Positions 4,100 to 24,551 of a DNA stretch of 24,551 nucleotides are shown here, piece by piece. The stretch comes from a virus (Duplodnaviria; Heunggongvirae; Uroviricota; Caudoviricetes). Where the stretch lies: IMG/VR virus record IMGVR_UViG_2545824713_000005. One strand, given 5' to 3'. Below the pieces are notes generated by a model that saw nothing but the letters and a program-made list of their open reading frames with translations, searched no databases and had not been told where the DNA came from. The first letter of the stretch is position 1, and each line of letters starts with the position of its first letter. The translations under genes and the position numbers were made by a program.

Positions 4100-4100
4100 T

Positions 4101-5985: not shown

Positions 5986-6064
5986 ACATGGCAACTCAAG
6001 GTTTCGACAACCCATCCAAATTCCGCGATGAATGGGATAAGCAAGCAGAAGGGAAATAATCAAT

Positions 6065-6490
6065 ATGGCGACTGAGAAAAAGAATGTCGGTCGCCCTTCG
6101 GATTACCTGCCGGAGGTGGCTGATGATATCTGTGCGCTGCTTGCCTCCGGGGAAAGTCTGGTTAAGGTTTGCAAGCGCCCAGGCATGCCAGCAAAGGCTA
6201 CTGTATTTCGCTGGCTGTCAGAGCATGAAGAATTTAGAGACAAGTACGCGAAGGCAACTGAGGCACGAGCTGATTCTATTTTCGAAGAGATATTCGAAAT
6301 TGCTGACACTGCGATTCCAGATGCTGCTGAGGTGGCAAAGGCAAGACTTCGCGTTGATACCCGCAAATGGGCGCTGGCCCGAATGAATCCCCGTAAGTAT
6401 GGCGACAAGGTAACTAACGAGCTTGTCGGCAAAGACGGCGGCGCAATCCAGATTGAAACATCACCGATGAGCACTCTATTCGGAAAATGA
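6065..6490 (+). CDS. Terminase small subunit (Sf6 gp1-like, 141 aa)
   Basis: MATEKKNVGRPSDYLPEVADDICALLASGESLVKVCKRPGMPAKATVFRWL... HTH-type small terminase; length matches the recalled Sf6 gp1; lies immediately upstream of the large terminase. Confidence 0.85.
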   Translation: MATEKKNVGRPSDYLPEVADDICALLASGESLVKVCKRPGMPAKATVFRWLSEHEEFRDKYAKATEARADSIFEEIFEIADTAIPDAAEVAKARLRVDTRKWALARMNPRKYGDKVTNELVGKDGGAIQIETSPMSTLFGK

Positions 6491-7899
6491 CCTCGATTAA
6501 TCCTATCTTTGAACCGTTCATTGAGGCGCATCGCTACAAAGTCGCCAAAGGCGGTCGAGGTAGCGGTAAATCATGGGCAATTGCGAGACTGCTTGTTGAA
6601 GCGGCGCGTCGGCAGCCAGTGCGTATTCTCTGTGCTCGTGAACTGCAAAACAGTATCAGCGATTCGGTAATCCGGCTGCTTGAAGACACCATAGAGCGTG
6701 AAGGGTATACGGCTGAGTTTGAAATTCAGCGTTCCATGATTCGTCATCTCGGAACGAATGCTGAGTTCATGTTCTACGGCATCAAAAACAACCCGACGAA
6801 GATTAAATCGCTCGAAGGCATTGATATCTGCTGGGTGGAAGAAGCGGAAGCGGTAACGAAGGAATCATGGGATATCCTGATACCAACCATCCGCAAGCCA
6901 TTTTCCGAAATATGGGTGAGCTTCAACCCGAAAAACATCCTCGACGATACCTATCAGCGATTCGTTGTAAATCCTCCCGATGATATTTGTCTGCTGACGG
7001 TGAACTACACCGACAACCCGCACTTTCCTGAAGTTCTCCGTCTGGAGATGGAAGAGTGCAAACGCAGAAATCCGACACTGTATCGTCACATCTGGCTTGG
7101 TGAGCCAGTGAGCGCAAGTGATATGGCAATCATCAAACGTGAATGGCTTGAAGCCGCAACCGATGCGCACAAGAAACTCGGATGGAAAGCGAAAGGCGCT
7201 GTTGTCTCTGCGCATGATCCATCAGATACAGGGCCAGATGCTAAAGGTTACGCATCGCGTCACGGTTCGGTAGTTAAGCGTATTGCCGAAGGTCTGCTGA
7301 TGGACATCAACGAGGGCGCTGATTGGGCTACTTCGCTGGCGATTGAAGACGGCGCTGACCATTACCTGTGGGATGGTGATGGTGTTGGTGCCGGGCTACG
7401 CAGACAGACAACAGAAGCGTTCTCCGGCAAGAAAATCACCGCCACGATGTTCAAGGGCAGCGAATCGCCATTCGATGAAGGTGCACCATATCAGGCCGGA
7501 GCATGGGCTGATGAAGTCGTGCAGGGCGACAACGTTCGCACTATTGGCGATGTGTTCCGTAATAAGCGAGCGCAATTCTATTACGCGCTGGCTGACAGGC
7601 TGTATCTGACATATCGGGCGGTTGTCCACGGTGAGTATGCAGACCCCGACGACATGCTGAGTTTCGACAAAGAAGCGATAGGCGAGAAGATGCTGGAGAA
7701 GCTGTTTGCAGAACTGACGCAGATTCAGCGCAAATTCAATAACAACGGGAAGCTGGAGCTAATGACTAAGGTCGAAATGAAGCAGAAGCTCGGTATTCCA
7801 TCTCCTAACCTGGCTGATGCGCTGATGATGTGTATGCATTGCCCGGCATTGGTCCGCGAAGAAACAGAAATATACGTCCCCTCATCCTCCGGTTGGTAA
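6487..7899 (+). CDS. Terminase large subunit (ATPase/nuclease)
   Basis: 470 aa; Walker A VAKGGRGSGKSWAIA near the N-terminus; ATGA overlap with the small terminase stop. Confidence 0.9.
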   Translation: MTSINPIFEPFIEAHRYKVAKGGRGSGKSWAIARLLVEAARRQPVRILCARELQNSISDSVIRLLEDTIEREGYTAEFEIQRSMIRHLGTNAEFMFYGIKNNPTKIKSLEGIDICWVEEAEAVTKESWDILIPTIRKPFSEIWVSFNPKNILDDTYQRFVVNPPDDICLLTVNYTDNPHFPEVLRLEMEECKRRNPTLYRHIWLGEPVSASDMAIIKREWLEAATDAHKKLGWKAKGAVVSAHDPSDTGPDAKGYASRHGSVVKRIAEGLLMDINEGADWATSLAIEDGADHYLWDGDGVGAGLRRQTTEAFSGKKITATMFKGSESPFDEGAPYQAGAWADEVVQGDNVRTIGDVFRNKRAQFYYALADRLYLTYRAVVHGEYADPDDMLSFDKEAIGEKMLEKLFAELTQIQRKFNNNGKLELMTKVEMKQKLGIPSPNLADALMMCMHCPALVREETEIYVPSSSGW

Positions 7900-7901
7900 A
7901 C

Positions 7902-10028: not shown

Positions 10029-10041
10029 CCAGGAGTAATCA

Positions 10042-10926
10042 ATGGAAAACGAACTGATCATCGACGGTCAGGTTATTGACCTGTCTGAAGCACAGGAAAA
10101 TGCAGAAGAAACCATCATCCAAACAGAGTCACAGCCTGAGAATGAAAGCCAGGATGACAACGGTAAAGAGGTGGCAACTGAGCCTGAAAAAACCGAAGAG
10201 ACACCAGAAGATTACGCCTTGCGTATTGGTGATGAAGAAATTCAGCTTAACGCTGACGATGATGATCACATTGACGGGCAACCTGCACCGCAATGGGTGA
10301 AAGATCTTCGCAAAGGCTTCAAAGAAACACAGAAAGAAAACCGTGAGTTGCGCCGCCAGCTTGAGGAAGCATTAGCCAAGCCAGCGGAACATCAGCAACC
10401 ACAACCAGACGCTATTCCACCAAAACCGACTCTTGAGTCGTGTGATTATGACGAACAGGCGTTTGAACAGGCATTGACTGATTGGCATGAGAAAAAAGGC
10501 CGTGTCGAACAGCAGCAGCAACAAAAACTACGTCAGCAACAGGAATACCAGCAGCGTTTCCAGCAAAGGGTAGAAGCGCATAAACAACGGGCAGCCAAAC
10601 TTCCTGTGAAAGATTATCAGGAAATGGAAGCCATTGTTCTTAGTGAGCTACCACCAATTCAGCAGGAAATCATCATTCACTGTGCAGACGAAGGCTCTGA
10701 ACTACTCGCCTATGGCTTAGGTAAGAGCCAGCAATTACGCCAGCGTGTAGCCGCTGAGACAGATCCAATTCGCGCAGCATTCCTCTTGGGGCAGATTAGC
10801 AAACAGGTAAGCCTTGCTCCAAAACCAAAGAAAGCCATCAAGCCAGAGCCGGAAGTACGTGGTGGCGGTGCTGATGCGAAACAAGACGAATTCAACAAAT
10901 TATGCCCCGGCGCAAAAATCGAATAA
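10042..10926 (+). CDS. Scaffolding protein (P22 gp8-like, 294 aa)
   Basis: Acidic N-terminus, Q/E/R-rich predicted coiled coil; sits between portal and coat; AGGAG RBS. Confidence 0.75.
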   Translation: MENELIIDGQVIDLSEAQENAEETIIQTESQPENESQDDNGKEVATEPEKTEETPEDYALRIGDEEIQLNADDDDHIDGQPAPQWVKDLRKGFKETQKENRELRRQLEEALAKPAEHQQPQPDAIPPKPTLESCDYDEQAFEQALTDWHEKKGRVEQQQQQKLRQQQEYQQRFQQRVEAHKQRAAKLPVKDYQEMEAIVLSELPPIQQEIIIHCADEGSELLAYGLGKSQQLRQRVAAETDPIRAAFLLGQISKQVSLAPKPKKAIKPEPEVRGGGADAKQDEFNKLCPGAKIE

Positions 10927-10937
10927 GGAAAAGATAA

Positions 10938-12209
10938 ATGCCTAACAATCTCGACAGTAACGTCAGTCAAATCGTTCTGAAAAAATTCCTTCCGGGTTTT
11001 ATGTCAGATTTAGTTCTGGCGAAAACCGTAGACCGTCAGTTGCTGGCAGGTGAAATCAACTCCAGCACTGGCGATAGCGTTAGCTTTAAACGTCCGCATC
11101 AATTCTCATCCCTCCGTACTCCCACTGGTGATATTTCAGGGCAAAATAAAAACAACCTGATCTCAGGTAAAGCTACGGGGCGTGTAGGTAACTACATCAC
11201 TGTTGCTGTTGAATATCAGCAACTGGAGGAAGCGATCAAGCTTAACCAGCTGGAAGAAATTCTCGCGCCGGTTCGCCAGCGAATCGTTACCGACCTTGAA
11301 ACAGAGCTTGCTCACTTCATGATGAATAACGGTGCGTTGTCACTTGGTAGCCCCAATACTCCAATCACCAAATGGTCTGATGTTGCGCAGACGGCATCTT
11401 TCCTGAAAGACCTCGGCGTTAATGAAGGTGAAAACTATGCTGTAATGGATCCATGGTCTGCACAGCGACTTGCTGATGCGCAGACTGGTTTGCACGCTTC
11501 AGATCAATTGGTTCGTACTGCATGGGAGAATGCACAGATCCCAACCAATTTTGGCGGCATTCGCGCACTGATGTCTAATGGGCTTGCCTCTCGTACGCAG
11601 GGGGCATTTGGCGGAACACTGACAGTCAAAACACAGCCAACTGTTACCTATAACGCAGTTAAAGACTCATACCAGTTCACTGTAACATTGACCGGAGCGA
11701 CAGCCAGCGTTACAGGTTTTCTGAAAGCTGGTGATCAGGTTAAATTCACCAATACCTACTGGCTGCAACAGCAGACCAAACAGGCGTTGTATAACGGAGC
11801 CACACCAATTAGCTTCACTGCAACGGTTACTGCTGATGCTAATTCAGACAGCAGTGGCGATGTGACGGTTACGCTTTCTGGTGTTCCGATTTATGACACT
11901 ACAAACCCGCAGTACAACTCTGTAAGTCGTCAGGTAGCGGCAGGCGATGCCGTATCTGTAGTAGGCACTGCTAGCCAGACAATGAAGCCAAACCTGTTCT
12001 ATAACAAGTTCTTCTGTGGACTTGGCTCTATCCCACTGCCGAAACTGCACAGTATTGATTCTGCTGTTGCAACATATGAAGGTTTCTCCATCCGCGTACA
12101 TAAATACGCAGATGGCGATGCCAACGTGCAAAAAATGCGCTTTGACTTACTGCCTGCATATGTGTGCTTTAACCCTCACATGGGCGGTCAGTTCTTCGGT
12201 AATCCGTAA
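10938..12209 (+). CDS. Major capsid (coat) protein (P22 gp5 / Sf6 gp5-like, 423 aa)
   Basis: Gene order and size; followed by a strong intrinsic terminator, as expected for a highly expressed coat gene. Confidence 0.85.
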   Translation: MPNNLDSNVSQIVLKKFLPGFMSDLVLAKTVDRQLLAGEINSSTGDSVSFKRPHQFSSLRTPTGDISGQNKNNLISGKATGRVGNYITVAVEYQQLEEAIKLNQLEEILAPVRQRIVTDLETELAHFMMNNGALSLGSPNTPITKWSDVAQTASFLKDLGVNEGENYAVMDPWSAQRLADAQTGLHASDQLVRTAWENAQIPTNFGGIRALMSNGLASRTQGAFGGTLTVKTQPTVTYNAVKDSYQFTVTLTGATASVTGFLKAGDQVKFTNTYWLQQQTKQALYNGATPISFTATVTADANSDSSGDVTVTLSGVPIYDTTNPQYNSVSRQVAAGDAVSVVGTASQTMKPNLFYNKFFCGLGSIPLPKLHSIDSAVATYEGFSIRVHKYADGDANVQKMRFDLLPAYVCFNPHMGGQFFGNP

Positions 12210-12213
12210 TAAC

Positions 12214-12240
12214 AAGGGGCTTCCGCCCCTTTTATGTTTT
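12214..12240 (+). terminator. Intrinsic terminator after coat gene
   Basis: AAGGGGC-TTCC-GCCCCTT hairpin followed by TTTTATGTTTT, 5 bp after the coat stop. Confidence 0.6.
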
Positions 12241-12251
12241 AAGGAAACAAT

Positions 12252-12437
12252 ATGGATCGCATGAGTGTATTCCTTGCCGCAGATAACGAATCCGGACATG
12301 TACAGGCCGTTATCGCAGAAAAAGACTTCCAGTTTTTCGAAAAGTTGGGCTTTGTTGCCTCAGTTGATGAATTGAAACCGACCAGTAAGCGAGGTCGTAA
12401 GGCGGCAGACAATGGCAACAGTACTGACAAAGGGTGA
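12252..12437 (+). CDS. Hypothetical small protein (61 aa)
   Basis: ATG with AAGGAAA RBS right after the coat terminator; MDRMSVFLAADNESGHVQAVIAEKDF...; 3' end overlaps next gene start. Confidence 0.4.
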   Translation: MDRMSVFLAADNESGHVQAVIAEKDFQFFEKLGFVASVDELKPTSKRGRKAADNGNSTDKG

Positions 12438-12894
12438 GATCGTCCTTTTTGCGCTTCGTAAGTTTGCTATTGCTTCTAATGCATCGCTGACTGATGTTGA
12501 GCCGCAATCAATTGAAGATGGTGTAAATGATCTGGAAGATATGATGTCCGAGTGGATGATTAACCCCGGCGACATTGGTTACGCTTTCGCAACTGGAGAT
12601 GAGCAGCCATTACCAGATGATGAGTCAGGTCTTCCAAGAAAATACAAACACGCAGTAGGCTATCAGTTATTGCTGAGAATGCTATCTGATTACAGCCTTG
12701 AGCCAACTCCGCAAGTTCTCAGTAACGCCCAACGCTCATATGATGCCTTGATGACCGACACTCTGGTTGTTCCTTCAATGCGACGACGTGGAGATTTTCC
12801 TGTAGGACAGGGTAATAAATATGACGTGTTTACATCTGACCGATATTATCCAGGCGATCTCCCTATGATTGATGGCGATATCCCAAACGCATAG
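12412..12894 (+). CDS. Head-completion / tail accessory factor (P22 gp4-like)
   Basis: 160 aa; LTDVEPQS and DLE.MM.EW motifs resemble the recalled P22 gp4; position after coat. Confidence 0.7.
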   Translation: MATVLTKGEIVLFALRKFAIASNASLTDVEPQSIEDGVNDLEDMMSEWMINPGDIGYAFATGDEQPLPDDESGLPRKYKHAVGYQLLLRMLSDYSLEPTPQVLSNAQRSYDALMTDTLVVPSMRRRGDFPVGQGNKYDVFTSDRYYPGDLPMIDGDIPNA

Positions 12895-12902
12895 GTGAAT
12901 AA

Positions 12903-14321
12903 ATGCCGATTCAGCAACTTCCGCTTATGAAAGGTGTCGGCAAAGACTTTCGAAACGCCGACTATATCGACTATCTGCCAGTGAATATGCTGGCTACACC
13001 AAAAGAAATCCTTAACAGCAGCGGATATCTTCGCTCATTCCCGGGCATTGCCAAACGTTCTGATGTGAACGGTATATCGCGCGGCGTCGAGTACAACATG
13101 GCGCAGAGTGCTGTATATCGCGTGTGTGGGGGCAAGCTGTATAAGGGCGAAAGCGAAGTCGGTGATGTTGCCGGAAGTGGTCGTGTATCAATGGCGCATG
13201 GTCGGACATCTCAGGCTGTAGGCGTTAATGGTCAACTGGTAGAGTATCGCTATGATGGCACGGTTAAAACAGTCTCAAACTGGCCTACAGACAGCGGATT
13301 CACTCAGTATGAGTTAGGTTCGGTTCGCGACATTACTCGTTTACGTGGGCGTTATGCGTGGTCAAAAGACGGCACTGATTCATGGTTTATCACTGACCTT
13401 GAAGACGAATCGCATCCTGACCGTTACAGCGCACAATATCGTGCCGAGTCTCAGCCGGACGGCATCATCGGTATCGGGACATGGCGAGACTTCATCGTCT
13501 GCTTTGGTTCATCGACTATTGAATATTTCTCCCTGACTGGCGCAACCACCGTTGGTGCTGCTTTGTATGTCGCACAGCCATCACTGATGGTGCAAAAAGG
13601 CATCGCCGGGACTTACTGCAAAACGCCGTTTGCTGATTCGTATGCGTTCATCAGCAATCCGGCAACGGGTGCGCCGTCTGTATACATCATCGGCTCCGGT
13701 CAGGTGTCACCAATCGCCAGCGCGAGCATTGAGAAAATCCTCCGCTCCTACACTGCTGATGAACTGGCTGATGGTGTGATGGAATCGCTGCGATTTGATG
13801 CTCATGAGTTGCTGATTATCCACCTTCCGCGCCATGTTCTCGTGTACGACGCATCTTCAAGCGCCAATGGTCCGCAATGGTGTGTGCTGAAAACAGGTCT
13901 GTATGACGATGTGTACCGCGCTATCGACTTCATTTACGAAGGCAATCAGATAACGTGCGGCGATAAACTGGAGTCCGTGACCGGGAAATTGCAATTCGAC
14001 ATCAGCAGCCAGTACGACAAGCAACAGGAACACCTGCTGTTTACTCCACTGTTCAAAGCGGATAACGCCAGATGCTTCGATCTGGAGGTGGAATCATCCA
14101 CTGGCGTAGCTCAGTACGCCGACCGCCTGTTCCTCTCTGCAACCACTGACGGCATAAATTACGGGCGTGAGCAGATGATTGAACAGAATGAACCGTTCAT
14201 TTACGACAAACGTGTTTTGTGGAAGCGTGTCGGGCGCATCAGGAAAAATGTCGGCTTCAAATTGCGCGTTATCACGAAGTCACCTGTCACTCTGTCAGGC
14301 TGCCAGATAAGGATCGAGTAA
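12903..14321 (+). CDS. Tail hub protein (P22 gp10-like, 472 aa)
   Basis: Size identical to the recalled P22 gp10 and conserved order gp4-gp10-gp26. Confidence 0.75.
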
Positions 14322-15169
14322 TGGCTGATTCGAATCTCAATGAGCCGGTAATCATTCAGGCTACACGACTCGACACATCAGTCCTTCCACGCAATATCTT
14401 CTCGCAGTCATATCTGCTGTACGTTATCGCACAGGGTACTGATGTTGGTAACGTGGCGAACAAGGCCAACGAAGCAGGGCAGGGCGCTTATGATGCACAA
14501 GTCAGGAACGATGAGCAGGATGTGATTCTCTCTGACCATGAGCAACGAATTTCTGCTGCGGAAGCAACGCTTGTTAATCATGAGGAGCGAATCAGCCAGG
14601 CAGAATCAACTCTTCAGGAACATGAAACGCGAATCACTCAGAATGAAAGCGATATTGCGTCGCTTGATACCAGAGTTCAGTCGCTGGAATCGCAGGTTTC
14701 AGACCATGAAACGCGCATCGATGCTCTGGAGTATGCCACTACTCGCAAGAAGTCAGAGGTTGTTTACTCTGGCGTATCAGTAACCATTCCGACAGCGCCG
14801 ACCAACCTTGTTAGCCTGCTGAAAACGCTCACGCCGTCATCCGGCACGTTGGCACCATTCTTCGACACCGTTAACAACAAGATGGTTGTGTTCAACGAGA
14901 ACAAAACCTTGTTCTTCAAGCTGTCGATCGTCGGGACGTGGCCCAGCGGAACCGCAAACAGGTCAATGCAGCTAACCTTTTCCGGCTCTGTTCCTGACAC
15001 ACTGGTCAGCAGTCGTAATGCGGAGACAACAACCGACAACATCCTGTTAGCTACGTTCTTCAGCGTGGATAAAGACGGCTTTCTTGCCACAAATGGCAGT
15101 ACGTTAACCATTCAGTCAAATGGGGCGGCGTTTACTGCCACAACCATCAAGATAATCGCGGAGCAGTAA
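14321..15169 (+). CDS. Tail needle / cell-puncturing protein (P22 gp26-like, Sf6-type with C-terminal knob, 282 aa)
   Basis: Start at [43 protein letters not shown] (resembles P22 gp26 N-terminus); heptad-repeat trimeric coiled coil (HE.RI...E.TL repeats); C-terminal beta-rich domain; TAATG overlap with gp10. Confidence 0.85.
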
Positions 15170-15624
15170 TGATTCAGTTCAAACCAACGCGAAACATCGA
15201 CCTGATCGAAGCAGTCGGAAATCACCCTGACATTATTGCCGGAAGCAACAACGGTGATGGATACGACTACAAGCCTGAATGCCGTTACTTTGAGGTGAAC
15301 GTGCACGGGCAGTTCGGCGGCATTGTTTACTATCAGGAGATTCAGCCGCTGACATTCGATTGCCACGCCATGTACCTGCCAGAGATTCGCGGCTTCAGCA
15401 AGGAAATCGGGCTGGCGTTCTGGCGATACATTCTGACTAACACCACCGTTCAGTGCGTCACATCGTTCGCCGCACGCAAATTCCGCCACGGGCAGATTTA
15501 CTGCGCAATGATTGGCCTTAAGCGTGTAGGAACCATCAAGAAATACTTCAAAGGCGTGGATGATGTGACTTTTTACAGCGCAACACGCGAAGAACTAATC
15601 GACTTCCTGAATCACGGGAGATAG
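15169..15624 (+). CDS. P22 gp14-like protein (151 aa)
   Basis: Position between tail needle and ejection proteins; start overlaps needle stop (TAATG). Confidence 0.55.
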   Translation: MIQFKPTRNIDLIEAVGNHPDIIAGSNNGDGYDYKPECRYFEVNVHGQFGGIVYYQEIQPLTFDCHAMYLPEIRGFSKEIGLAFWRYILTNTTVQCVTSFAARKFRHGQIYCAMIGLKRVGTIKKYFKGVDDVTFYSATREELIDFLNHGR

Positions 15625-15626
15625 CC

Positions 15627-16319
15627 ATGTTATATGCATTTAAGATGGGCAGAAAACTGCGTGGCGAGGAACCTTATTGCCCTGAAAAAGGCGGGAAAGG
15701 TGGCAGTTCTGATAAAAGCGCAAAGTATGCAGCAGAAGCTCAGAAGTATGCCGCAGACCTGCAAAATCAGCAGTTCAACACCATCATGAATAACCTGAAG
15801 CCGTTTACTCCTCTGGCTGAGAAGTATGTCGGCAGCCTCGAAAACTTATCGTCTCTGGAGGGGCAAGGTCAGGCACTTAACCAGTATTACAACTCTCAGC
15901 AGTATAAAGACCTTGCAGGTCAGGCTCGCTATCAGAGTCTGGCGGCAGCGGAAGCAACAGGTGGATTGGGTTCCACCGCAACCAGTAATCAGTTAGCAAC
16001 AATCGCACCAACGCTTGGTCAGCAATGGCTATCTGGACAAATGAACAATTACAACAACCTGGCAAATATCGGTCTTGGCGCTCTTCAGGGACAGGCAAAC
16101 GCCGGGCAAACATATGCCAACAACATGAGTCAGATTTCGCAGCAAAGTGCGGCTCTTGCAGCGGCAAATGCCAACAGACCATCAGCAATGCAATCTGCTA
16201 TTGGCGGAGGTGCGTCTGGTGCTATTGCTGGGGCCGGACTTGCGAAATTAATTGGTTCATCAACTCCGTGGGGGGCTGCGATCGGCGGCGGTCTTGGTCT
16301 GCTTGGCTCGTTGTTTTAA
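15627..16319 (+). CDS. Ejection (internal virion) protein, P22 gp7-like (230 aa)
   Basis: Size and order; Q/N/A-rich with C-terminal Gly/Ala-rich hydrophobic segment (AIGGGASGAIAGAGLAKLIG...GGGLGLLGSLF). Confidence 0.7.
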   Translation: MLYAFKMGRKLRGEEPYCPEKGGKGGSSDKSAKYAAEAQKYAADLQNQQFNTIMNNLKPFTPLAEKYVGSLENLSSLEGQGQALNQYYNSQQYKDLAGQARYQSLAAAEATGGLGSTATSNQLATIAPTLGQQWLSGQMNNYNNLANIGLGALQGQANAGQTYANNMSQISQQSAALAAANANRPSAMQSAIGGGASGAIAGAGLAKLIGSSTPWGAAIGGGLGLLGSLF

Positions 16320-16329
16320 GGGGTAATCA

Positions 16330-17745
16330 ATGGCTACGTGGCAACAGGGTATTAATTCTGGTGGTTTTCTGGCTGGCATCGGTACGCAAAATGAGAATGC
16401 GCCAAAGGCAAGCGACATTAACGCAACGCTTGGTCTGATCCGCGAAAACAATGAACTGGCTCGCTCAGGTGCAAATAACGTTGGCCTGACCGCGTTACGT
16501 GGTCTGGCTGGAGTTGCTGATATTTACAATCAGGAACAGCAACAGAAAGCTATTAGTGCGTTCAATAAGGTTCACGCTGATGCATGGGCTTCTGGTGATC
16601 CATCGGGACTATTTAAGTTTGCCCAGGAAAATCCAGCGTTTGTTGCACAGGCACAACAGGCGTTTTCCGGTCTTAATGATCAGCAACGCAACGATATGGG
16701 CGATTTAGCCATGAGGGCTAACGTCGCTCTTTCTCAGGGGCCGGAAGCCTACAGTAAATTCATTACTGACAACAAGGACAGGTTAAATCGCGTTGGTGCT
16801 AATGCTGACTGGATGATTCAGACAGGTATCCAGAATCCAGAGCAGCTATCACACATGCTGACTACTATGTCTCTCGGTGCGCTTGGACCAGAAAAGGCGT
16901 TTGCTGTTCAGGATAAGATGGCTGGTCGTGAAATTGACCGAGGCAGGCTGGCAGAGACAATCCGCAGCAATCAGGCTGGTGAAGCACTTCAGGCGAGAGG
17001 GCAAAACCTTTCCTATCAGTCAGCAATGACTGGGCACAATATCGCAGCACAACGCTTGGCTCTGGATCAGCAAGAGTTCGGGTTTAAGATGCAGCAAGCG
17101 CAGGAAAAGGCTCAGCAGTTGATTAGCGAAGCACCTAAGCTGTCAGTAAACATGGAAAAAGGAATCGAGACGGCTGTAAACAATGCCACAGCATCATCAA
17201 ACTCAGCCAATTCCATGAGTGCGCTTGCTCAACAGTTCAGAGCAGAAAAACCAACGACAGGTTTGTTCGGTAACGCACAGAACATGTTCGCAAAACTTAC
17301 CGGAAGCGATACGACATTGCGTGATTTGCGCATTCGCCAAAATGCCCTTGTTAACAGTCAGGTTCTTAAATTCCTACCTCCCGGCCCAGCAACGGATAAA
17401 GACGTTGAGATCGTTAGACAGGGTGCGCCAACTGACATGGATAACCCTGAGACGGTCGCAAGATGGCTTGATGCAATGGCAAACCTTGAGCGACGAAACG
17501 CGCAGTTTAATGAGTTTAAAGCCGAGTGGATGAGCGCGAATGGCAACCCTGGACAATCGCGTAATGGCGGTCAGATATTGGGGTTGGATGTTAAAAAAGG
17601 TGAATCATTGGGGAGTGCCGTTAAGCGGTATATGTCAATGAATACTGACGCAGCGCCAGCACAAGATTCGACACCTTCAGGAGAACCACGGAGTCAGGTT
17701 GGATCATATACCTCAAAATCAGGCATTCAATTTACGGTGGAATGA
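16330..17745 (+). CDS. Ejection protein, P22 gp20-like (471 aa)
   Basis: Size identical to the recalled P22 gp20 and conserved order gp7-gp20-gp16. Confidence 0.7.
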
Positions 17746-19748
17746 TGAAAGTAACTGCAAACGGTAAGACATTTACCTTTCCTGATGGTACGAGCACCGA
17801 AGATATTGGCACCGCCATTGATGAGTATTTTGCTGGTCAGTCAGCACCAACACAACAAGGTGTTCAGCAATCGCCAGCAGACAACTCACTTGCATCAGGA
17901 TATGCACAGCTTGCCACTCAGCAGAAGGAAGGACTAGATCGCTCTGCTGAGCAAGGGGCTGTTTTAGGTGCTGCAATGCGCGATGCCGTTACCGGTGAAA
18001 GCCGAATGACACCAGAAATGGAGAGACTGCAAAATGTTGGGTCTGCTCCAGAGCTTAATAGCTTAAGCACTGATGCGCTGCGTGCTGGATTGGGGCAGCT
18101 ATTTGGTTCCGACGCTTCACAGGAGAAAATACTGCAAAGTATTGGCGGGAAAATCCGGAAGGATGAGAAGGGAAATTCCATAGTCACCCTTCCTTCAGGG
18201 GAATATGCACTTAACAAGCCTGGTTTGTCACCGCAGGATATAACGTCATTCTTGGCAAATGCTCTTGCATTCACTCCAGCAGGTAGAGCTGCGTCTGTTG
18301 TAGGTGCAACACTAAAATCAGGCGCTACTGATTTAGCTTTACAGGGTGCCACTAAGATCGCTGGCGGTGAGAATGTTAATCCAGTTCAAACTGCAATTTC
18401 TGCTGGTCTTGGTGGGGTACTAAAGGGTGTAGAAAACACCGCAAGCGCAGTGTCTCGTTCTGCTATGGGTAAGATTGCTCCTGAAAAACAAGCTCAGATT
18501 GACTTTGCCAAGCAGAACAACTTGCCACTGATGACAACAGATCTTGTGGAACCGGGAACAAATATTGGTAAGCAAGCACGAGCTATGGCTGAGCGAATCC
18601 CAATAGCCGGAACAGGTGGGATAAGAAATGCACAGCAAAAGGCCAGGGAAGATTTAGTTAGAACATTTAGCGATAATGTTGGTGGAATATCTGACGCACA
18701 ACTTTACCAATCAGCTACTCGTGGTCAGCAGCAATTTATTCAGGCTGCTGGCAAGCGGTACGACAGGATCATCAGTTTGATGGGGGATACTCCTGTTGAC
18801 ATCACTGGAACAGTGAAAGCAATTGATGAGCAGATTTCCAAGTTAACTCGCCCAGGAGTATCGCAAGACCGCTCAGCTGTTTCTGTCCTTCAACAGTTTA
18901 GAAATGACATCACCAGCGGTCCAAATAACCTGCAATTAGCTAGAGAAAACCGTACAAACTTACGTAAGCGCTTTATGGCAGCACCTGACGAGGTCGATAG
19001 AGATACGCTGGAGAAAGCTGCGCAGTCTGTTTATAACGCATACACAACAGACATGAAAAAAGCGGTTGGCGCAAAACTAGGTGCGAAGGAAGCGCAAAAC
19101 ATGTCGCGTGTTGATCGTTCTTGGGCAAAGTTCAACGACATGATGAGCAATACACGTGTCCAAAAAGCTATTCAGAGTGGTAAAACAACGCCAGAAGATG
19201 TCACTAAACTAGTATTCAGCCAAAGCCCAGCGGAAAGGGCGCAACTTTATCGATTGCTTGATGATAGTGGGCGTCAAAATGCTAGAGCAGCACTTGTTCA
19301 GCGTGCAATGGATAAGGCGACAAGCGATTCAGGAAAGCTTAGCGTTGAGAAGTTTATTAATGAAATGAAAAGGAATCGGAAGCAGGCTGAGACGTTCTTC
19401 AGAGGAGAGCATGGGAAACAGCTTGATGGGATAATGAAATATCTTGATTCCACTAGACAGGCAGCTACTGCTGCCGCAAGCCCACTAACAGGGCAAATGG
19501 TAGCTGGTCCAGCAGCGCTGATAACAGCTCTTGCGTCTGTTACAAATCCAATGTTTGCAAAAGTTGCGGCAGTTGGAGCTGGTATCGGTATGGCTGGCAG
19601 GGGCTATGAGTCACGCGCGATGAGGAACGCATTACTAAAGTTAGCAAACACGCCAAAAGGAAGTACTGCTTATGATAGAGCGATCAGACGGGTATCTGAA
19701 ACTCTTACACCTCTAATTCAGGCTTCAAGTGAGCAAGCCCAGCAGTAA
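17742..19748 (+). CDS. Ejection protein, P22 gp16-like (668 aa)
   Basis: Large A/G/Q-rich protein after the gp20 homolog; ATGA overlap with gp20 stop. Confidence 0.7.
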
Positions 19749-19756
19749 AAAGTTGG

Positions 19757-20077
19757 TTAGCGGTTGATGGTTGCTTTTTTCGGGTCATACCATCTCGGCC
19801 ATTCTTTCAGGAATGGGAATGAGTCGGGAGCGTGGTTCTTTTTGTACGATTTAAGCAGCCTTAACCGCTCAATCGCACACTCATAAACCTCTTGTTGCCC
19901 TGTAGTCATCTCGGTCCATGAAAGGTGATCCATTGATAAGACAACGTTTTCAGCTTCTTTTATGAGGGCGTTTTTATTTCTCACCGCAGCAGCATGGCTG
20001 ACAGAGCAATCCTGCCATATTCTTAAAAGCCAAATAGCTAAGCAGATGAAAAAAATGGTAGAGAGCGATATGTACAT
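19757..20077 (-). CDS. Hypothetical single-pass membrane protein (106 aa), last gene of the mnt-side leftward cluster
   Basis: MYISLSTIFFICLAIWLLRIWQD... N-terminal TM helix; AAGGAG RBS; AT-rich codon usage unlike the flanking structural genes; convergent with gp16, 8 bp apart. Confidence 0.55.
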   Translation of the reverse strand: MYISLSTIFFICLAIWLLRIWQDCSVSHAAAVRNKNALIKEAENVVLSMDHLSWTEMTTGQQEVYECAIERLRLLKSYKKNHAPDSFPFLKEWPRWYDPKKATINR

Positions 20078-20157
20078 GCCGATCTCCTTAGATTTATCAA
20101 TGCTGCATGATTTTCAACAGACATCAATCATGCAGCTATAGGTAATAAATCAAGAAA

Positions 20158-20658
20158 CTATTGAGAACGTTTGTCTTTTTGAGACTCTAATATAGCCAAT
20201 ACCTTATAAAGAGATTGGTTTGTTGAGTCTAATTTTTGATCAGTGTTATCAATCCTTGACTGTAATACTGATTGGTTGTTTTGGATAGTAGCCATTATCT
20301 CTGCCTTACTGGTTTGGATGTTTCCTGTTAGCTCTTGTCGTGATGATTCAACTTTATCATCTATAGTGCCTCGAATCGTCCATGTGGCGGCAACGATAGA
20401 ACCAATGATAGCAACTGCAACCCCGTATAGCTCTAAACGTTTCACGGTATCACGACCTTCTTCTTTGTGTTGCTCTTCTTGTAGGCTAAATATTTGTGGT
20501 TCCTTTGACGGATTTCTGTCAGTTGGTCTGTAATACTCTGAATATTTAGCGTTTTCTATTGAACTCCATAACGATTTGTCAAAGTCAAGGTTTTCATGTT
20601 GGCTTTGAGCATCTCCATAAATACTAGGTGATTTATTGTGAACATGTTGGTCAAACAT
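20158..20658 (-). CDS. Hypothetical membrane protein (about 166-170 aa) with central TM helix and C-terminal coiled-coil-like region; possible SieA-type exclusion protein
   Basis: Track ORF 20158-20670 begins at a GTG; I favour the ATG at 20658 with GGAG RBS. Central TM segment LYGVAVAIIGSIVAATWTI; start region overlaps the stop of the upstream Cys4 gene. Confidence 0.5.
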   Translation of the reverse strand: MFDQHVHNKSPSIYGDAQSQHENLDFDKSLWSSIENAKYSEYYRPTDRNPSKEPQIFSLQEEQHKEEGRDTVKRLELYGVAVAIIGSIVAATWTIRGTIDDKVESSRQELTGNIQTSKAEIMATIQNNQSVLQSRIDNTDQKLDSTNQSLYKVLAILESQKDKRSQ

Positions 20659-20998
20659 TATCTCCATCACCCTTTACGAATTTTCCAGAAGAGATATTTT
20701 CACTAACTTTGTTTAAACTAAAAAAGTGGAAGAAACCGCAAGTGGTGCATTGCATGGCTACCATGTTAAGACTATCGTTGCTATAAGTATCTTGATTAAC
20801 AGGATTATTAGGCAAGCTTTTACCTGGTATGGATGGGCCTATAACTTCAACACCATCATCTTTTTTAAGATGCTCAGGTGCTAAAAGAGTCCAGTTTGTA
20901 TTGCTGCATATTGGGCATACATAAGTTTTTTTGAATGAAGTCAAGTAATTACTAAAAGACTCAAAAGTAACTTTTAAGTATTGCTCCTTACTGCTCAT
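20651..20998 (-). CDS. Hypothetical Cys4 (zinc-ribbon-like) protein (115 aa), translationally coupled to mnt
   Basis: CPIC...(52 aa)...CTTCG motif; ATG overlaps the mnt stop (TAATG on minus strand); AT-rich. Confidence 0.5.
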   Translation of the reverse strand: MSSKEQYLKVTFESFSNYLTSFKKTYVCPICSNTNWTLLAPEHLKKDDGVEVIGPSIPGKSLPNNPVNQDTYSNDSLNMVAMQCTTCGFFHFFSLNKVSENISSGKFVKGDGDNV

Positions 20999-21237
20999 TA
21001 TTGGCCTCGAATCTTCTTAAGTACGCTAATTGCAATATCCATTGCTTCCTTCTCTGTTTTTGTGAGATCTTGAGATGTCGATGGTATGACCTTTTCTCTG
21101 TTAATCTTAATCCATAGCTGTATTGCAGCTATGATTTCAGCATTGATAGAGCGCCTGTTTGTTGCCGCAATGTGAGTAAGCTGCTGCTTGATTTCACTTG
21201 GCATTCTTACGTTAAATTGTGGATCGTTTCTAGCCAC
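20998..21237 (-). CDS. mnt: Mnt-like ribbon-helix-helix repressor (immI maintenance repressor)
   Basis: MARNDPQFNVRMPSEIKQQL... resembles the recalled P22 Mnt N-terminus (MARDDPHFNFRMP...); GTG start with AGGAGA RBS; divergent from arc. Confidence 0.85.
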   Translation of the reverse strand: MARNDPQFNVRMPSEIKQQLTHIAATNRRSINAEIIAAIQLWIKINREKVIPSTSQDLTKTEKEAMDIAISVLKKIRGQ

Positions 21238-21330
21238 GTCGCTCTCCTGTTATTTGTTGACATGCTAGAACGGTAGTAGTACGCTTTCAATAGTAGTACG
21301 GTGCTATCATTTAATGGAATGGAGTGGAAT
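21238..21330. promoter_or_regulatory. Divergent overlapping Pmnt / Pant promoter-operator region
   Basis: Plus strand TTGACA at 21257-21262 (Pant -35); on the minus strand -35 TTGAAA (21285-21290) and -10 TAGCAT (21262-21267) with 17-bp spacing (Pmnt); two direct copies of TAGTAGTACG at 21274-21283 and 21291-21300. Confidence 0.5.
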
Positions 21331-21492
21331 ATGCAAGGCGCAAGAAAAATGCCGCAGTTCAATTTGCGGTGGCCTAAAGAAGTATTGGATTTGGTACGCA
21401 AGGTGGCGGAAGAGAATGGTCGGTCTGTTAACTCTGAGATTTATCAGAGAGTAATGGACAGCTTTAAGAAGGAAGGGCGCATTGGCGCGTAA
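21331..21492 (+). CDS. arc: Arc ribbon-helix-helix repressor (53 aa)
   Basis: [53 protein letters not shown], near-identical to the recalled P22 Arc; start is the internal ATG with GGAG RBS inside track ORF 21301-21492. Confidence 0.9.
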
Positions 21493-21494
21493 AG

Positions 21495-21565
21495 TTGAAG
21501 CCCCAACTGCGGGAACAGTCAGGGCTTCGGTTGTCGGTAAATTCGTGGAGAAAAACCAACATGAA
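21495..21565 (-). ncRNA. Candidate sar-like antisense RNA covering the arc-ant intercistronic region and ant RBS
   Basis: By analogy with P22 immI: minus-strand TATACT -10 overlapping the ant start, and hairpin GAAGCCC...GGGCTTC at about 21503-21532. Ends not determined. Confidence 0.3.
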
Positions 21566-22496
21566 TAGTATAGCAATTTTAGAAGCAGTGAACACCTCTT
21601 ACGTGCCTTTCAATGGTCAGCAGATTTTAACCGCTGTGGCTGCCGGAGTGACTTATGTAGCGATGCGTCAAATTGTGGAAAACATTGGTATCGACTGGAC
21701 TGGTCAATCTGTTAAGTTGCGTAAAATGAAGGACAAATTCAACTGTAGAGATATCTCTATGGTTGCTGCTGATGGCAAGTTACGTAAGCTTTTATGCATC
21801 CCGCTGAAGAAGTTAAATGGATGGCTGTTCAGCATCAACCCTGAGAAAGTTCGTGCTGACATCCGTGATAAACTGATTCAGTACCAGGAAGAATGCTTTA
21901 GCGTGCTGCATGACTACTGGACTAAAGGTCATGTAGTTAACCCACGCAAAGCTAAAAAGGCGTTGCCGGGTAAAATCACCACTGAACAGCAGGAAGCCAT
22001 TAAACAACTCGTCATGAGTCGCGGTCAGTCTCTGCCAAAAGAAAAACAGGCTAAGGCGATGATCACCATGTGGTCGTCACTGAAATCCCATTTTGGATGT
22101 TCGTACAAAGAAATCAGTGAGGAGCAGTTTACCGAAGCACTATCACTTGCAGCTCGAGTTCCACTTGAAGGTGAGTTCATTGGCAAACAAGAGAAGAAAA
22201 CCAACGAGCTTTCTGCAAAAGAAGCAAACAGCCTTGTATGGTTATGGGATTATGCTAACCGCTCACAGGCATTATTCCGCGAACTGTATCCGGCATTAAA
22301 ACAAATTCAATCGAACTATTCCGGCAGATGCTACGACTACGGTCATGAATTCTCGTATGTTATCGGAATGGCGAGAGACGTTTTAATCAATCACACACGC
22401 GATGTTGATATCAATGAGCCAGACGGACCAACGAATCTTTCCGCATGGATGAGACTTAAGAATAAAGAATTACCTCCTTCAGTACATAACTACTGA
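21561..22496 (+). CDS. ant: Antirepressor Ant (311 aa)
   Basis: Start at [21 protein letters not shown]... with GGAG RBS (track ORF begins earlier at 21495); immediately downstream of arc as in P22 immI. Confidence 0.8.
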
Positions 22497-22513
22497 CAGA
22501 TAACCAACGCGAC

Positions 22514-22540
22514 AACCCAGCTTCGGCTGGGTTTTTTTAT
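22514..22540 (+). terminator. Intrinsic terminator after ant
   Basis: CCCAGC-TTCG-GCTGGG hairpin followed by TTTTTTT. Confidence 0.6.
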
Positions 22541-22596
22541 GCCCAAAATTCACCGTAGCCATGCTGCGGCGATTCCTTGTATCTGGAGCAAATTAA

Positions 22597-24411
22597 ATGA
22601 CAGACATTACAGCCAATGTGATCGTATCGATGCCTTCGCAACTTTTCACTATGGCGCGTTCTTTTAAAGCCGTAGCCAATGGCGAAATTTATATCGGGAA
22701 AATTGACACTGACCCGGTAAATCCTGAAAACCGGATTCAGGTTTATGTAGAGAATGAAGACGGTTCTCATGTTCCTGTTTCGCAACCAATAATCATTAAC
22801 GCTGCTGGTTACCCTGTATATAACGGACAGATTGCCAAGTTCGTAACTGTGCAAGGCCATTCTATGGCTGTTTATGATGCATATGGTGCACAGCAGTTCT
22901 ATTTTCCGAATGTTCTTAAATATGATCCTGATCAGCTTAAAGTATCTCTATCAGGGGAAGACGGTCTTAAATACATCGGGACATGCCCTGATATAGCAAT
23001 GTTAAGGACAATTGAGCCTGAGCGAGATCAGCAAAAGATTTTCGTCGACTTCCACACTACAGGCATGAAGCCGACAGTATCAGGTGATACTGGTGGTGGT
23101 CTGTTTGTGGCCGATTTCACAGATTCTACTTCTGCAGATGATAACGGCATGGTCATTGTCACTGCGGGTGGTAAACGCTGGAAACGTGATCTTCAAGGTA
23201 AGGGGTACGTAACACCACGTATGTTTGGAGCGTGGATGGATGCTCCATATATTGACTGGAGTACTATTCAGGCCACAGGGTATCCTAGAGCGCCAAGCAT
23301 GGGTGGCGTTGATTTAACAGGTGTAACAAATGATGGATTAGCACTTAATAAAGCTTATCTAACTAAGCTTCCTGTTTTCATAGACCAGCCTATATATATT
23401 GGTAACACTCAAATTGACATTAGCCAGTTTAGATGGGAAGGGATTAGTCTAAATCTATATGGGATTAATCCACAAAAAAGTATTGTTTATACATCAGGAA
23501 GTGGTGGTTTTGTTATGGGAAGTTGGGGGCACAATCTTAAAGTAAAGAATATGTGTTTTCGCAACGCTGACGATGAATATTCAGGTAGCCCATTGGTCAT
23601 TTCTGGTCAAACACAAACTTTTGGCGGTGGTAGTGAATATGATATTAAAAATAACATATTTCTACATTATAAATTTGCACTTCCCTTATCATGCTTTGTC
23701 AGTAATGTTACAAACAACCAAGCATATGATTGTATCTATGGTTTCGGTTTGGCTGGCACATCTACTACATTCTCTTCCAACTGGGCAAGGCATTGTGACT
23801 ACGGATATCTGTGGGGCGCGGCTATTGATAGAACAACATATGATCCGGTGAACAGTCCTTACCCATTGATGTATGTTAAGGCCACAAATATCGCGTCGGA
23901 TGGATGTAAATTACCACATAAGTTCTATCAATTTAGATCTTTAAGTATTGATGGTCTAGGTATTGAGGGTGTCACAGGAGATCATTGCTTAGATTTTACA
24001 GATATAGTTCAGCAGGATGCTACTTCGCTAATGGAGTTGTCAAATATCTCATGCGATCTTAAGGAAGACAATGCGGTAGGTGTGACGCACTTCATATCAT
24101 TGCCAACTAATGAACAGAATGGACCAACACAAGTTAGGATATCATCTGGATATGTTCGGGCACACAAAGGGATTACCCTTCTTAAGAATACATCTGACGA
24201 GTTAAGCCAGTATCAATGCCGTGGGTTTGATATTTGTGATGGGTTCAAATTCATAAAGCAAACAAGCGGTAGTTCTATCGCTGATGACTACGTTAGAGGG
24301 AGTAAATATCATTCAAGATTCTATGGTGAACATACAGGTATTGGTTATCAGACAGGCTCTAATGGCACTAAACTTTCAGCATTACATCAGGCATCTAGAC
24401 TGGCCCCCTGA
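22597..24411 (+). CDS. Tailspike protein: P22 gp9-like N-terminal head-binding domain plus divergent receptor-binding domain; 3' end interrupted by IS2 (last 5 codons and stop are IS-derived)
   Basis: First ~115 aa ([43 protein letters not shown]...NVLKYDPDQ) resemble the recalled P22 tailspike N-terminus; remainder is AT-rich and unrelated to it. ORF ends ...[10 protein letters not shown], where SRLAP-stop is encoded by TCTAGACTGGCCCCCTGA, the IS2 terminus. Confidence 0.8.
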
Positions 24412-24551
24412 ATCTCCAGACAACCAATATCACTTAAATAAGTGATAGTCTTAATACTAGTTTTTAGACTAGTCATTGGAGAGCAGATGATTGATGTCTT
24501 AGGACCGGAGAAACGCAGACGGCGTACTACACAGGAAAAGATCGCTATTGT
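24396..24551 (+). mobile_element. IS2 left end (IRL and start of orfA), continues beyond window
   Basis: TAGACTGGCCCCCTGAATCTCCAGACAACCAATATCACTTAAATAAGTGATAG... matches my recollection of the IS2 left terminal repeat region, followed by the InsC start. Confidence 0.75.
24487..24551 (+). CDS. insC: IS2 OrfA (InsC) N-terminal fragment, truncated by window end
   Basis: ATG with GGAGAG RBS; translation [22 protein letters not shown] matches the recalled IS2 InsC N-terminus. Confidence 0.75.

Follow-up and report, generated by a model that had tools for sequence, protein, structure and literature searches.

A mosaic P22-like tailspike gene with a rare beta-helix, probably aimed at O32/O83 O-antigens and truncated by IS2

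The tailspike gene and its genomic context

The window, i.e., the whole 24,551-nt stretch of viral DNA analyzed here, harbors at positions 22597-24411 on the plus strand a real ORF for 604 amino acids, located as given in the preliminary description. The ORF is uninterrupted and has a good start with a GGAG ribosome-binding site. It represents the tailspike gene (gene 9) of a P22-like prophage (Lederbergvirus; N7/HK620/Sf6-type). The genes upstream gave Pfam matches to the Sf6-type small terminase, large terminase, P22 portal, coat, gp4, gp10, Sf6-type needle knob, gp7, gp20, and antirepressor, and Arc-family genes were called on the same contigs as the tailspike ORF. The gene stands in its canonical place at the end of the late (virion) operon, downstream of the immI region (arc, ant), with the antirepressor gene ant at 21495-22496. 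A terminator-like GC-rich hairpin with a T-run, AACCCAGCTTCGGCTGGGTT TTTTTATG, was located between ant and the tailspike start (22514-22533, plus strand) as a consensus match only. The region 6402-22940 formed a single 16.5-kb block that was 98.4% identical to and collinear with phage N7. PADLOC analysis of three unknown minus-strand ORFs upstream of the tailspike gene detected no defence gene.

Anchor, neck, and beta-helix of the tailspike

Residues 1-115 (22597-22940, plus strand) constitute a P22-type head-binding (tail-attachment) domain, as delimited by Pfam, by PDB sequence matches, and by the end of the N7 block. The Pfam family Head_binding (PF09008) matched residues 1-113 over all 113 profile positions with an E-value of 1.5e-65, and the PDB sequence search retrieved Sf6 gp14 (7e-64) and the P22 tailspike (5e-51). 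When counted by hand from the printed alignments, the identity was ~90% to Sf6 gp14 over residues 1-102 and ~74% to P22 gp9 over residues 1-113, in agreement with the preliminary description, in which residues 1 to about 115 had been likened to the N-terminal domain of P22 gp9 up to the hinge. PF09008 was the only family detected by the local Pfam search of the tailspike protein, and no family was matched in the NCBIfam search. The anchor is common to N7, HK620, Sf6, CUS-3, epsilon34, and P22. The DNA homology to 26 P22-like phages ended at gene nt 339-347, and in these phages and 1041 E. coli genomes it was confined to the anchor-coding part; the DNA search of INPHARED phages gave no match past the anchor.

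These end-points coincide with the hinge KYDPDQLK (22918-22941, plus strand), where the anchor and the receptor part were joined by recombination. The N7 block ended at 22940 inside AAA TAT GAT CCT GAT CAG CT (KYDPDQL), and this loss of the 98.4% identity within the KYDPDQ hinge confirmed the mosaic joint. As the P22 chains aligned to query residues 1-137 only and not to the receptor-binding module, the protein was indeed, as had been proposed, a mosaic tailspike in which a P22-type anchor is joined at the YDPDQ hinge to a module without sequence relation to P22 gp9. The receptor-binding part was gained by horizontal exchange at this hinge, while the head-binding domain fixes the spike to the tail. 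Mosaic joints at this hinge are textbook knowledge for the tailspikes of P22-like phages, and this core finding adds no new principle.

It had also been claimed that the sequence becomes AT-rich after 22940, and the absence of a break at the hinge had been named beforehand as the outcome contradicting that claim. The GC content along the gene gave precisely this outcome, as it was 0.416 for 22597-22940 and 0.408 for 22941-24395, with a change-point likelihood-ratio of 0.04 at the hinge. The best change point was found at gene nt ~712 (window ~23308), where the LLR was a modest 4.2, and the AT-rich stretch begins ~350 nt past the hinge. The GC content of the virion gene cluster (0.488) exceeds that of the whole tailspike gene, including the anchor part.

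The 307 nt directly following the hinge, the most GC-rich part of the gene (0.476), encode a neck domain of residues 116-217 (22941-23247, plus strand), a small beta domain resembling that of CBA120 TSP2 and an exchangeable module. Residues 118-213 matched CBA120 TSP2 (5w6p, residues 14-101; also 6w4q) with an E-value of 1e-10, and a match to WceF (6tgf, E = 8e-14, query residues 8-216) spanned both the anchor and the neck. The PDB sequence search gave no alignment beyond residue 216, so that the neck was matched and the helix was not. The precomputed annotation PF27114 (Phage_tail_beta) was present on this exact protein and on nearly every homologue, including the neck-only matches; our local Pfam copy, which may not contain this model, gave no match to it even at E-values up to 1. 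Related proteins carry differing anchors (PF09008, PF18668, PF12571, or PF03906), and the neck domain links many different phage anchors to beta-helices.

The neck is followed by a right-handed parallel beta-helix of residues 218-575 (23248-24321, plus strand), presumed to be responsible for glycan binding and cleavage. The fold was seen, together with a C-terminal sandwich, in the AlphaFold model of an intact homologue that is 100% identical over query residues 116-600. The P22 fragment 109-666 (2vfn) was a weak match at the level of the fold only (Foldseek E = 5e-3). The beta-helix would bind and cleave a surface polysaccharide. Residues 576-600 (24322-24395, plus strand), the last tailspike-derived sequence in the window, correspond to a low-confidence linker, with a model pLDDT below 50 for residues 576-601. 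In the intact alleles, a conserved beta-sandwich (residues ~607-745) forms the C-terminal domain.

The beta-helix family was rare, being represented by 16 cluster representatives among 1.84 billion proteins, and relatives with at least 65% nucleotide identity were present in only three of 5426 complete E. coli genomes, those of the strains 573, 22KM0354, and mip270_04, which harbor intact alleles for 745, 748, and 742 aa, respectively. The allele of strain 573 was ~100% identical to the window from gene nt 271 to 1799. That of 22KM0354 was identical for aa 116-390 and then showed ~50-60% nucleotide identity through the distal helix and the C-terminal domain. The allele of mip270_04 was identical for aa 1-217, with 96-100% identity up to gene nt ~630, and unrelated thereafter, with ~35-60% nucleotide identity in the distal helix and C-terminal domain and only ~40% identity in the beta-helix. 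An internal recombination joint was accordingly placed in the beta-helix near gene nt 1170 (window ~23766, aa ~390), and the receptor part thus has joints at aa ~217 and ~390 besides the hinge. The preliminary description of a swapped beta-helix module was therefore supported by the AlphaFold model with regard to the fold, whereas per-segment and sliding identities revealed at least three exchangeable segments instead of one block. Natural chimeras with joints at ~115, ~217, and ~390 lend themselves directly to mapping which part of a beta-helix spike determines serogroup specificity.

The comparison with characterized tailspikes proposed earlier found none that was close. The INPHARED protein search gave ~51% amino acid identity at best, mostly to proteins annotated as hypothetical. 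The family of the receptor part is small and common to lytic Kagunavirus, T7-like, and Ackermannviridae-type phages, and the receptor module is a new, uncharacterized member of a well-known kind, the mosaic tailspike.

IS2 at the 3' end of the gene

The homology to the intact allele of strain 573 stopped at window 24395, where the window reads ...GGCATC|TAGACTGGCCCCCTGA and the intact allele ...GGCATC|AAATGCAGTA. The sequence beyond (24396-24551, plus strand) is the left end of IS2, a member of the IS3 family, which has its first ORF starting at 24487 and continues past the window edge; in longer contigs this ORF matched PF01527 (HTH_Tnp_1). IS2 copies were 100% identical to a 160-nt junction query (24392-24551, of which 24396-24551 is IS2), and most of this query was present in 4707 of the 5426 E. 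coli genomes, annotated as 'IS3-like element IS2 family transposase'. When compared with the intact allele, the end of the ORF (24396-24411, plus strand) is derived from IS2, which supplies the third base of codon 600, the residues R-L-A-P, and the stop codon TGA. The window ORF thus consists of 600 residues and four IS2-coded ones, while the intact alleles encode 742-748 aa, and the 145 residues beyond codon 600, comprising the C-terminal domain, are missing. The intact 745-aa homologue P0001, 100% identical over query residues 116-600, retains them. This domain was present in 18 of 18 other full-length homologues with 38-67% identity, including the invariant or near-invariant residues H734, Y736, D737, and W740. 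The preliminary description had overlooked the IS2 truncation and the non-natural end of the ORF.

IS2 has inserted at codon 600, in the linker ahead of the C-terminal domain; if this was a simple insertion, the gene would resume beyond IS2 with AAATGCAGTATATC... and run on through ~440 nt of its 3' end, whereas these would be absent after an IS-mediated deletion. Tailspike trimers of P22 and its relatives are held together by their C-terminal domains, and for this reason the 604-aa product probably fails to assemble. In that case the prophage would yield spikeless, non-infectious particles, and we infer that the tailspike gene here is a pseudogene of a decaying prophage.

Other readings of the gene end were considered. 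The preliminary description had implicitly read the 604-aa ORF as coding for a full-length, functional mosaic tailspike with a natural stop at 24409-24411. Although the uninterrupted ORF with its start and ribosome-binding site suits this reading, as does PHROG 33504, the best match in PHROGs (unknown function), whose profile is also 604 positions long, IS2 accounts for the final 16 nt and for all of the sequence downstream, and the intact alleles continue for 145 residues into a conserved domain. In addition, PHROG 33504, the profile of which matches residues 1-601 of P0001, appears to have been built from the same IS2-truncated protein. A complete tailspike is therefore very improbable. The IS2-cut fragment seems to have entered PHROGs as a separate family, and modeling of 'residues 116-599' as a complete receptor-binding domain would mislead. 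A different possibility is that the cut product still functions: its helix would trimerize without the C-terminal domain, and the particles would stay infectious or the host would profit from a free depolymerase. The cut lies in a predicted flexible linker and leaves the anchor, neck, and beta-helix whole with all invariant acidic helix residues, and the distal sequence is 100% identical to the intact allele, indicating either a recent insertion or persisting constraint; moreover, C-terminal chaperone domains are cleaved off after folding in some tailspike families. However, a domain of the chaperone type would be required in folding as well, trimer assembly of P22-type spikes depends on their C-terminal parts, and the conservation of the domain and its invariant motifs in every full-length homologue argues that it is needed. 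We consider a functional truncated spike unlikely.

The possibility that the junction arose during assembly as a chimeric end of the contig was rejected as extremely improbable. The window and all four retrieved contigs end inside or at IS2, which is typical of short-read assemblies meeting a repeat, but the same truncated ORF and identical junction were reproduced in four independent data sets, namely two NCBI assemblies and two independently assembled read sets. The junction also starts at what we take to be the canonical IS2 terminus, TAGACTGG, and finished genomes likewise show insertions of IS3-family elements in P22-type tailspike genes.

Predicted receptor and comparison with known tailspikes

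The serogroups of the complete-genome carriers were O32 for 573 and mip270_04 and O83 for 22KM0354, so that all three belonged to O32 or O83; O32 was found in only 9 of 5426 E. coli genomes. The wzx-wzy regions of O32 and O83 are 66% identical and each other's closest relatives, and the two clusters share a seven-gene layout. According to Pas et al. 2023 (PMC10408124), the tailspike subtypes of Lederbergvirus prophages track the host O-serogroup, and receptor modules of this kind are exchanged among the phage genera considered here. Beyond a brief mention in that paper, our literature search found none linking O83 or O32 to a tailspike. The related O-antigens O32 and O83 are the most likely targets of the beta-helix family, an assignment that rests on the three lysogens and a phage whose name suggests isolation on NRG857c. 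The strain NRG857c is of O83:H1, and lysogens can change their O-antigen after infection. Because a nearly identical intact allele resides in the O32 strain 573, the window allele itself is probably an O32-specific depolymerase. The family member of mip270_04, which is also O32, is only ~40% identical in the helix, and this tempers any assignment of specificities within the family.

A capsule (K antigen) or another exopolysaccharide was weighed as the receptor instead of the O32/O83 O-antigen. Many of the best structural matches were to enzymes by which phages of Klebsiella and Acinetobacter depolymerize capsules, WceF acts on an exopolysaccharide, the P22-like phage CUS-3 bears a K1 endosialidase on the same anchor, and several of the homologues belong to phages equipped with multiple spikes. 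Against these stand the restriction of the three carriers to rare serogroups with sister gene clusters, the O-antigen-modifying acyltransferase gene lying directly after the tailspike gene in all three intact prophages, at the position which we take to be that of the O-acetylase gene oac in Sf6, and the second remnant of the family in mip270_04 beside gtrABC-type O-antigen glucosylation genes. Such a receptor is thus rather unlikely. The joint reading of the locus, as a mosaic P22-like tailspike with an O32/O83-aimed beta-helix and as a probable pseudogene truncated by IS2, appears to us well founded and quite probable.

As the O83-linked allele of 22KM0354 equals the O32-linked allele up to ~390 and diverges after it, we tentatively propose, as a possible but doubtful extension, that this is the first recognized O32/O83-specific depolymerase family and that recombination in the helix at ~residue 390 switches between O32 and O83. 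If this were true, the C-terminal half of the helix alone would set serogroup specificity. The O83 repeat unit contains 4-substituted glucuronic acid; if that structure is right, the enzyme could be a lyase and not a hydrolase. Adherent-invasive and extra-intestinal pathogenic E. coli, LF82 and NRG857c among them, belong to serogroup O83, and a defined depolymerase for O83/O32 would be of use as a reagent for typing or therapy.

The closest systems to the present one are the E. coli alleles of 573, 22KM0354, and mip270_04, which represent the same gene in the same prophage type and are intact, unlike the window copy. Full-length members of the same neck/beta-helix/C-terminal family with 44-51% amino acid identity occur in lytic phages, namely Kagunavirus NRG857CP3 and EC3-1, TH16/TH20, YX22, Enterobacter phage fGh-Ecl02, and Dhillonvirus Opt-719. 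These uncharacterized spikes differ from that of the window in that they are intact, carry anchors of PF18668, PF03906, or no recognized type, and are mostly annotated as 'hypothetical protein'.

The spikes Sf6 gp14 and HK620 gp9 and those of N7 and P22 (gp9) share with the window protein the PF09008 anchor, the KYDPDQ hinge, and the gene position after immI/ant, and follow the same overall plan of anchor, beta-helix, and C-terminal domain. No sequence similarity to them was seen past residue ~137, the window copy is cut by IS2, and the neck domain ahead of the helix is absent from P22 gp9. The P22, Sf6, and HK620 spikes cleave the Salmonella O, Shigella flexneri Y, and E. coli O18A1 antigens, respectively, from which the predicted specificity of the window spike differs. 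CBA120 TSP2 (ORF211; 5w6p, 6w4q), an O157-specific tailspike hydrolase, was only 13-15% identical over the helix; it has an Ackermannviridae branching-domain anchor, unlike the window protein, and its target O-antigen also differs. Regarding the truncation, a P22-type tailspike gene is likewise split by an IS3-family element in the strains F2_407_2_2 and DEC9B, as is the second spike of the same beta-helix family in mip270_04, with insertion sites and elements or copies different from those in the window.

The tailspike gene and its mosaic joint

The gene at 22597..24411 (+) is the tailspike gene of a P22-like prophage, consisting of a conserved anchor (head-binding domain) and a horizontally exchanged receptor part, with IS2 at codon 600. 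The ORF of 604 codons was present precisely as in the preliminary description. The Pfam head-binding domain PF09008 spans residues 1-113 of the product end to end (E=1.5e-65), and the matches of the N-terminus to solved structures were Sf6 gp14 (E=7e-64) and the P22 tailspike (E=5e-51). The identities counted on the alignments were approximately 90% to Sf6 gp14 (residues 1-102) and 74% to P22 gp9 (residues 1-113), and the alignments with the P22 tailspike stopped by residue 137. Whole-window comparison detected a single unbroken block at 6402-22940, 98.4% identical to phage N7, which ends within AAA TAT GAT CCT GAT CAG CT (KYDPDQL), the hinge between the anchor and the receptor part. When 50,697 phage records were searched by megablast, 26 P22-like phages, N7, HK620, Sf6, CUS-3 and epsilon34 among them, matched the gene from nt 1 to 339-347 only. 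The gene was also matched by 1041 of the 5426 complete E. coli genomes, nearly all across the same first fifth only. These matches agreed with the claim that a P22-like N-terminus ends at the hinge, and the mosaic joint there is well supported by DNA homology.

In contrast to the AT-rich shift claimed at the hinge, the GC content of the head-binding part was 0.416 and that of all the sequence after it 0.408, with a single-change-point likelihood ratio at the hinge of 0.04. Within the gene, GC content peaked in the 307 nt directly 3' of the hinge (0.476). An AT-rich stretch (0.38) begins near 23250-23310, where the best change point had a modest LLR of 4.2, and the entire gene, including the anchor, has a lower GC content than the cluster of virion genes (0.488). 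The lack of a break at the hinge, named beforehand as a refuting result, removed the compositional argument, while the mosaic structure stands because homology establishes it independently.

The genes for terminase, P22 portal, coat, gp4, gp10, Sf6-type needle and gp7 are located upstream of the tailspike gene, together with those for gp20, a gp16 homologue, arc and ant. A strong terminator-like hairpin with a T-run was seen at 22514-22533 (+), after ant and before the start codon of the tailspike gene. As a search of 22300-22700 detected no sigma-70-like promoter, expression of the tailspike presumably relies on antiterminated late transcription reading through this hairpin. P22-like phages carry sieA-type morons between gp16 and the arc/ant region, and three consecutive ORFs of 106, 170 and 115 aa (19757-20998, -) occupy this interval in the window. 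They matched PHROGs of unknown function only (10450, 24865, 4293), with no match in Pfam or among PADLOC defence systems. At 2592-3734 (-), with the Q antiterminator (2005-2403) on one side and the genes for lysozyme and Rz (4477-5438) on the other, lies a gene for a 380-aa Gram-negative porin (Pfam Porin_1, E=3.7e-153). It looks like a porin moron carried by the prophage, akin to PA-2 Lc or DLP12 NmpC, and is flanked at approximately 3540-3700 by the AT-richest sequence of the window (GC 0.32).

Truncation by IS2

The chicken strain 573 was the single complete E. coli genome matching most of the gene, and its allele is annotated as 2238 nt encoding 745 aa. The homology to this allele reaches 24395 and then ends; the window reads CATCAGGCATC followed by TAGACTGGCCCCCTGAATCTCC, and the intact allele CATCAGGCATC followed by AAATGCAGTATATC. 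A 160-nt junction query (24392-24551) matched, at 100% identity, copies that carry the annotation "IS3-like element IS2 family transposase", and most of it is present in 4707 of the 5426 E. coli genomes. The ORF starting at 24487 encodes, in longer contigs, an IS3-family HTH_Tnp_1 domain. These results demonstrated that IS2 was inserted at codon 600, and the IS2 end supplies the last residues of the 604-aa ORF, R-L-A-P, together with its stop codon. The junction is real, as it is identical in two NCBI assemblies, GCA_000357465.2 (contig APZQ01000045) and GCA_000357125.1 (contig APZS01000020), and two separately assembled read sets, all of which contain the exact 604-aa protein. In these four data sets, which match the window across the junction, every contig terminates in or at IS2; an assembly artefact was excluded by their concordance. 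Because the distal sequence has not yet diverged from an intact allele (100% identity), the insertion is probably recent.

The 604-aa ORF is therefore to be corrected to a fragment of the tailspike. The 604-position profile of PHROG 33504 ("unknown function") matched the intact protein (745 aa) over residues 1-601; the profile appears to have been built from the IS2-truncated fragment, which spreads as a protein family. P22-type tailspikes split by an IS3-family transposase were also seen in strains F2_407_2_2 and DEC9B (hits H55 and H56; NZ_CP074756.1 1840853-1842535 and NZ_CP074760.1 3736203-3737885), and IS insertion in prophage tailspike genes thus seems recurrent.

Anatomy of the intact protein and consequences of the cut

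The search with residues 116-600 found 47 proteins, the best match being a 745-aa "phage tailspike protein [E. coli]" that was 100% identical across the query. In an alignment of 20 sequences, all full-length members run beyond residue 600 into a conserved domain, in which H734, Y736, D737 and W740 are invariant or near-invariant. The AlphaFold model of the 745-aa protein (mean pLDDT 71, pTM 0.63; a monomer run with the anchor poorly modelled) predicted a small beta "neck" domain at residues 126-197 with moderate confidence, a long beta-rich solenoid at approximately 210-560 (pLDDT mostly 85-95 over approximately 240-480), a linker at 576-601 (pLDDT below 50) and a beta-sandwich at 607-745 (pLDDT 70-87). 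The top Foldseek match in the PDB was CBA120 TSP2 (E=6e-14), followed by Acinetobacter tailspikes, Klebsiella Depo32 and DpK2, and Pantoea WceF. By sequence, the pre-helix domain of CBA120 TSP2 resembles the neck (E=1e-10), and the match to WceF (E=8e-14; query residues 8-216) takes in both anchor and neck. These fold searches secure the fold class, a parallel beta-helix, but not the choice between hydrolase and lyase chemistry.

By analogy with the tailspikes of P22, Sf6 and HK620, the anchor would dock the trimer onto the tail, the helix would bind and cleave O-antigen repeats so that the virion reaches the outer membrane, and the C-terminal region would keep the trimer together. The IS2 cut sits in the linker; anchor, neck and helix are retained, including the invariant acidic residues D274, D325, D435, E457 and D466 of the helix, and the entire C-terminal sandwich is lost. 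An intact functional spike of 604 aa is contradicted by the end of homology at 24395, the IS2 identity and the conserved C-terminal domain of the full-length homologues. A truncated but active spike, with which the whole helix and the cut in the linker would agree, is quite improbable, as the lost domain is universally conserved. Most likely, the 604-aa product fails to assemble without its C-terminal region, and the prophage would then produce spikeless, non-infectious particles.

Modularity and likely receptor

Sliding identity against the intact alleles detected three more exchange points besides the hinge, and the per-segment protein identities were concordant. The 573 allele was 84-97% identical over gene nt 1-270 (22597-22866; 8001-8270 of the extracted 573 locus) and approximately 100% identical beyond, pointing to a further recombination joint inside the anchor, upstream of the hinge; one receptor module is therefore paired with two diverged anchors. 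The mip270_04 allele was 96-100% identical up to gene nt 630 or so (residue ~217) and approximately 50% beyond. The 22KM0354 allele was 100% identical from gene nt 361 to approximately 1170 (residue ~390), then 78%, dropping to approximately 50%. The neck is common to proteins with very different N-termini (58-91% identity), namely PF09008, PF18668 (TSP1/Gp66-type), PF12571 and PF03906 (T7 fibre), and the most variable segment is the C-terminal half of the helix (34-58%). In the O83 strain 22KM0354, the allele (3968-6214 of its locus) is a natural intra-helix chimera jointed at approximately 23766 (residue ~390), the same as the O32-linked allele before this point and sharply divergent after it, coinciding with the O32/O83 difference. 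Such natural chimeras place a possible specificity switch in the distal half of the helix.

Exhaustive phmmer against 1.84 billion cluster representatives with helix residues 218-599 found 16 proteins at E<=1e-3, nine of them at E<=1e-30. Among deposited phage genomes, relatives of the full distal region with 44-51% identity, the majority annotated as hypothetical, occur in Kagunavirus NRG857CP3 and EC3-1, the 40-kb phages TH16 and TH20, the 154-kb phages YX22 and fGh-Ecl02, and Dhillonvirus-type phages. Helix relatives at approximately 65% nucleotide identity or more were found in only three of the 5426 complete E. coli genomes, and the serogroups of these carriers were read directly from their O-antigen clusters. 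Strain 573 has "O32 family" wzx and wzy, mip270_04 has the same O32 wzy, present in only 9 of the 5426 genomes, and 22KM0354 has "O83 family" wzx and wzy. The O32 and O83 clusters share an identical seven-gene layout, and their wzx-wzy are 66% identical over most of the length, with no comparably close relatives elsewhere among the 5426 genomes. RefSeq applies the name 'O83 family O-antigen polymerase' to a wzy at NZ_CP118997.1 2325173-2326383 (hit H115) that is 99.8% identical to O32 wzy and aligns with a length difference of one base, being the shorter; the two naming models evidently cross-hit, consistent with a close kinship of the clusters.

Lederbergvirus prophage tailspike subtypes track the host O-serogroup, and tailspike exchange with Kaguna-, Kayfuna- and Kutterviruses has been shown; O32 and O83 are absent from the list of assigned serogroups (Pas et al. 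2023, PMC10408124). The association across the three lysogens suggests O32 and O83 as the targets of the family, and O32 as that of the window allele, since it is near-identical to the 573 allele (O32) from gene nt 271 onward. An acyltransferase gene follows the tailspike gene in all three intact prophages, at the position of the O-acetylase gene oac in Sf6. A capsule target is possible on grounds of fold, but less likely than O-antigen in view of the serogroup pattern and the adjoining O-antigen-modification genes. Strain mip270_04 (O32) also carries a second spike of this family, which an IS3-family element has divided into two ORFs annotated 'hypothetical' (NZ_CM132654.1 886252-898862, locus 3408-6624) and which is adjoined by gtrA, a gtrB-like GT2, a gtrC-like glucosyltransferase and an acyltransferase gene. 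This remnant is an independent instance of IS inactivation in the same spike family, beside O-antigen-modification genes. Mosaic tailspikes on the P22 anchor have long been described, and the inactivation of prophage genes by IS elements is common. The small novelty here lies in the natural chimeras with their possible specificity switch, in the recognition of this ORF as a fragment, and in a rare, uncharacterised family of receptor modules to which O32/O83 can plausibly be assigned.
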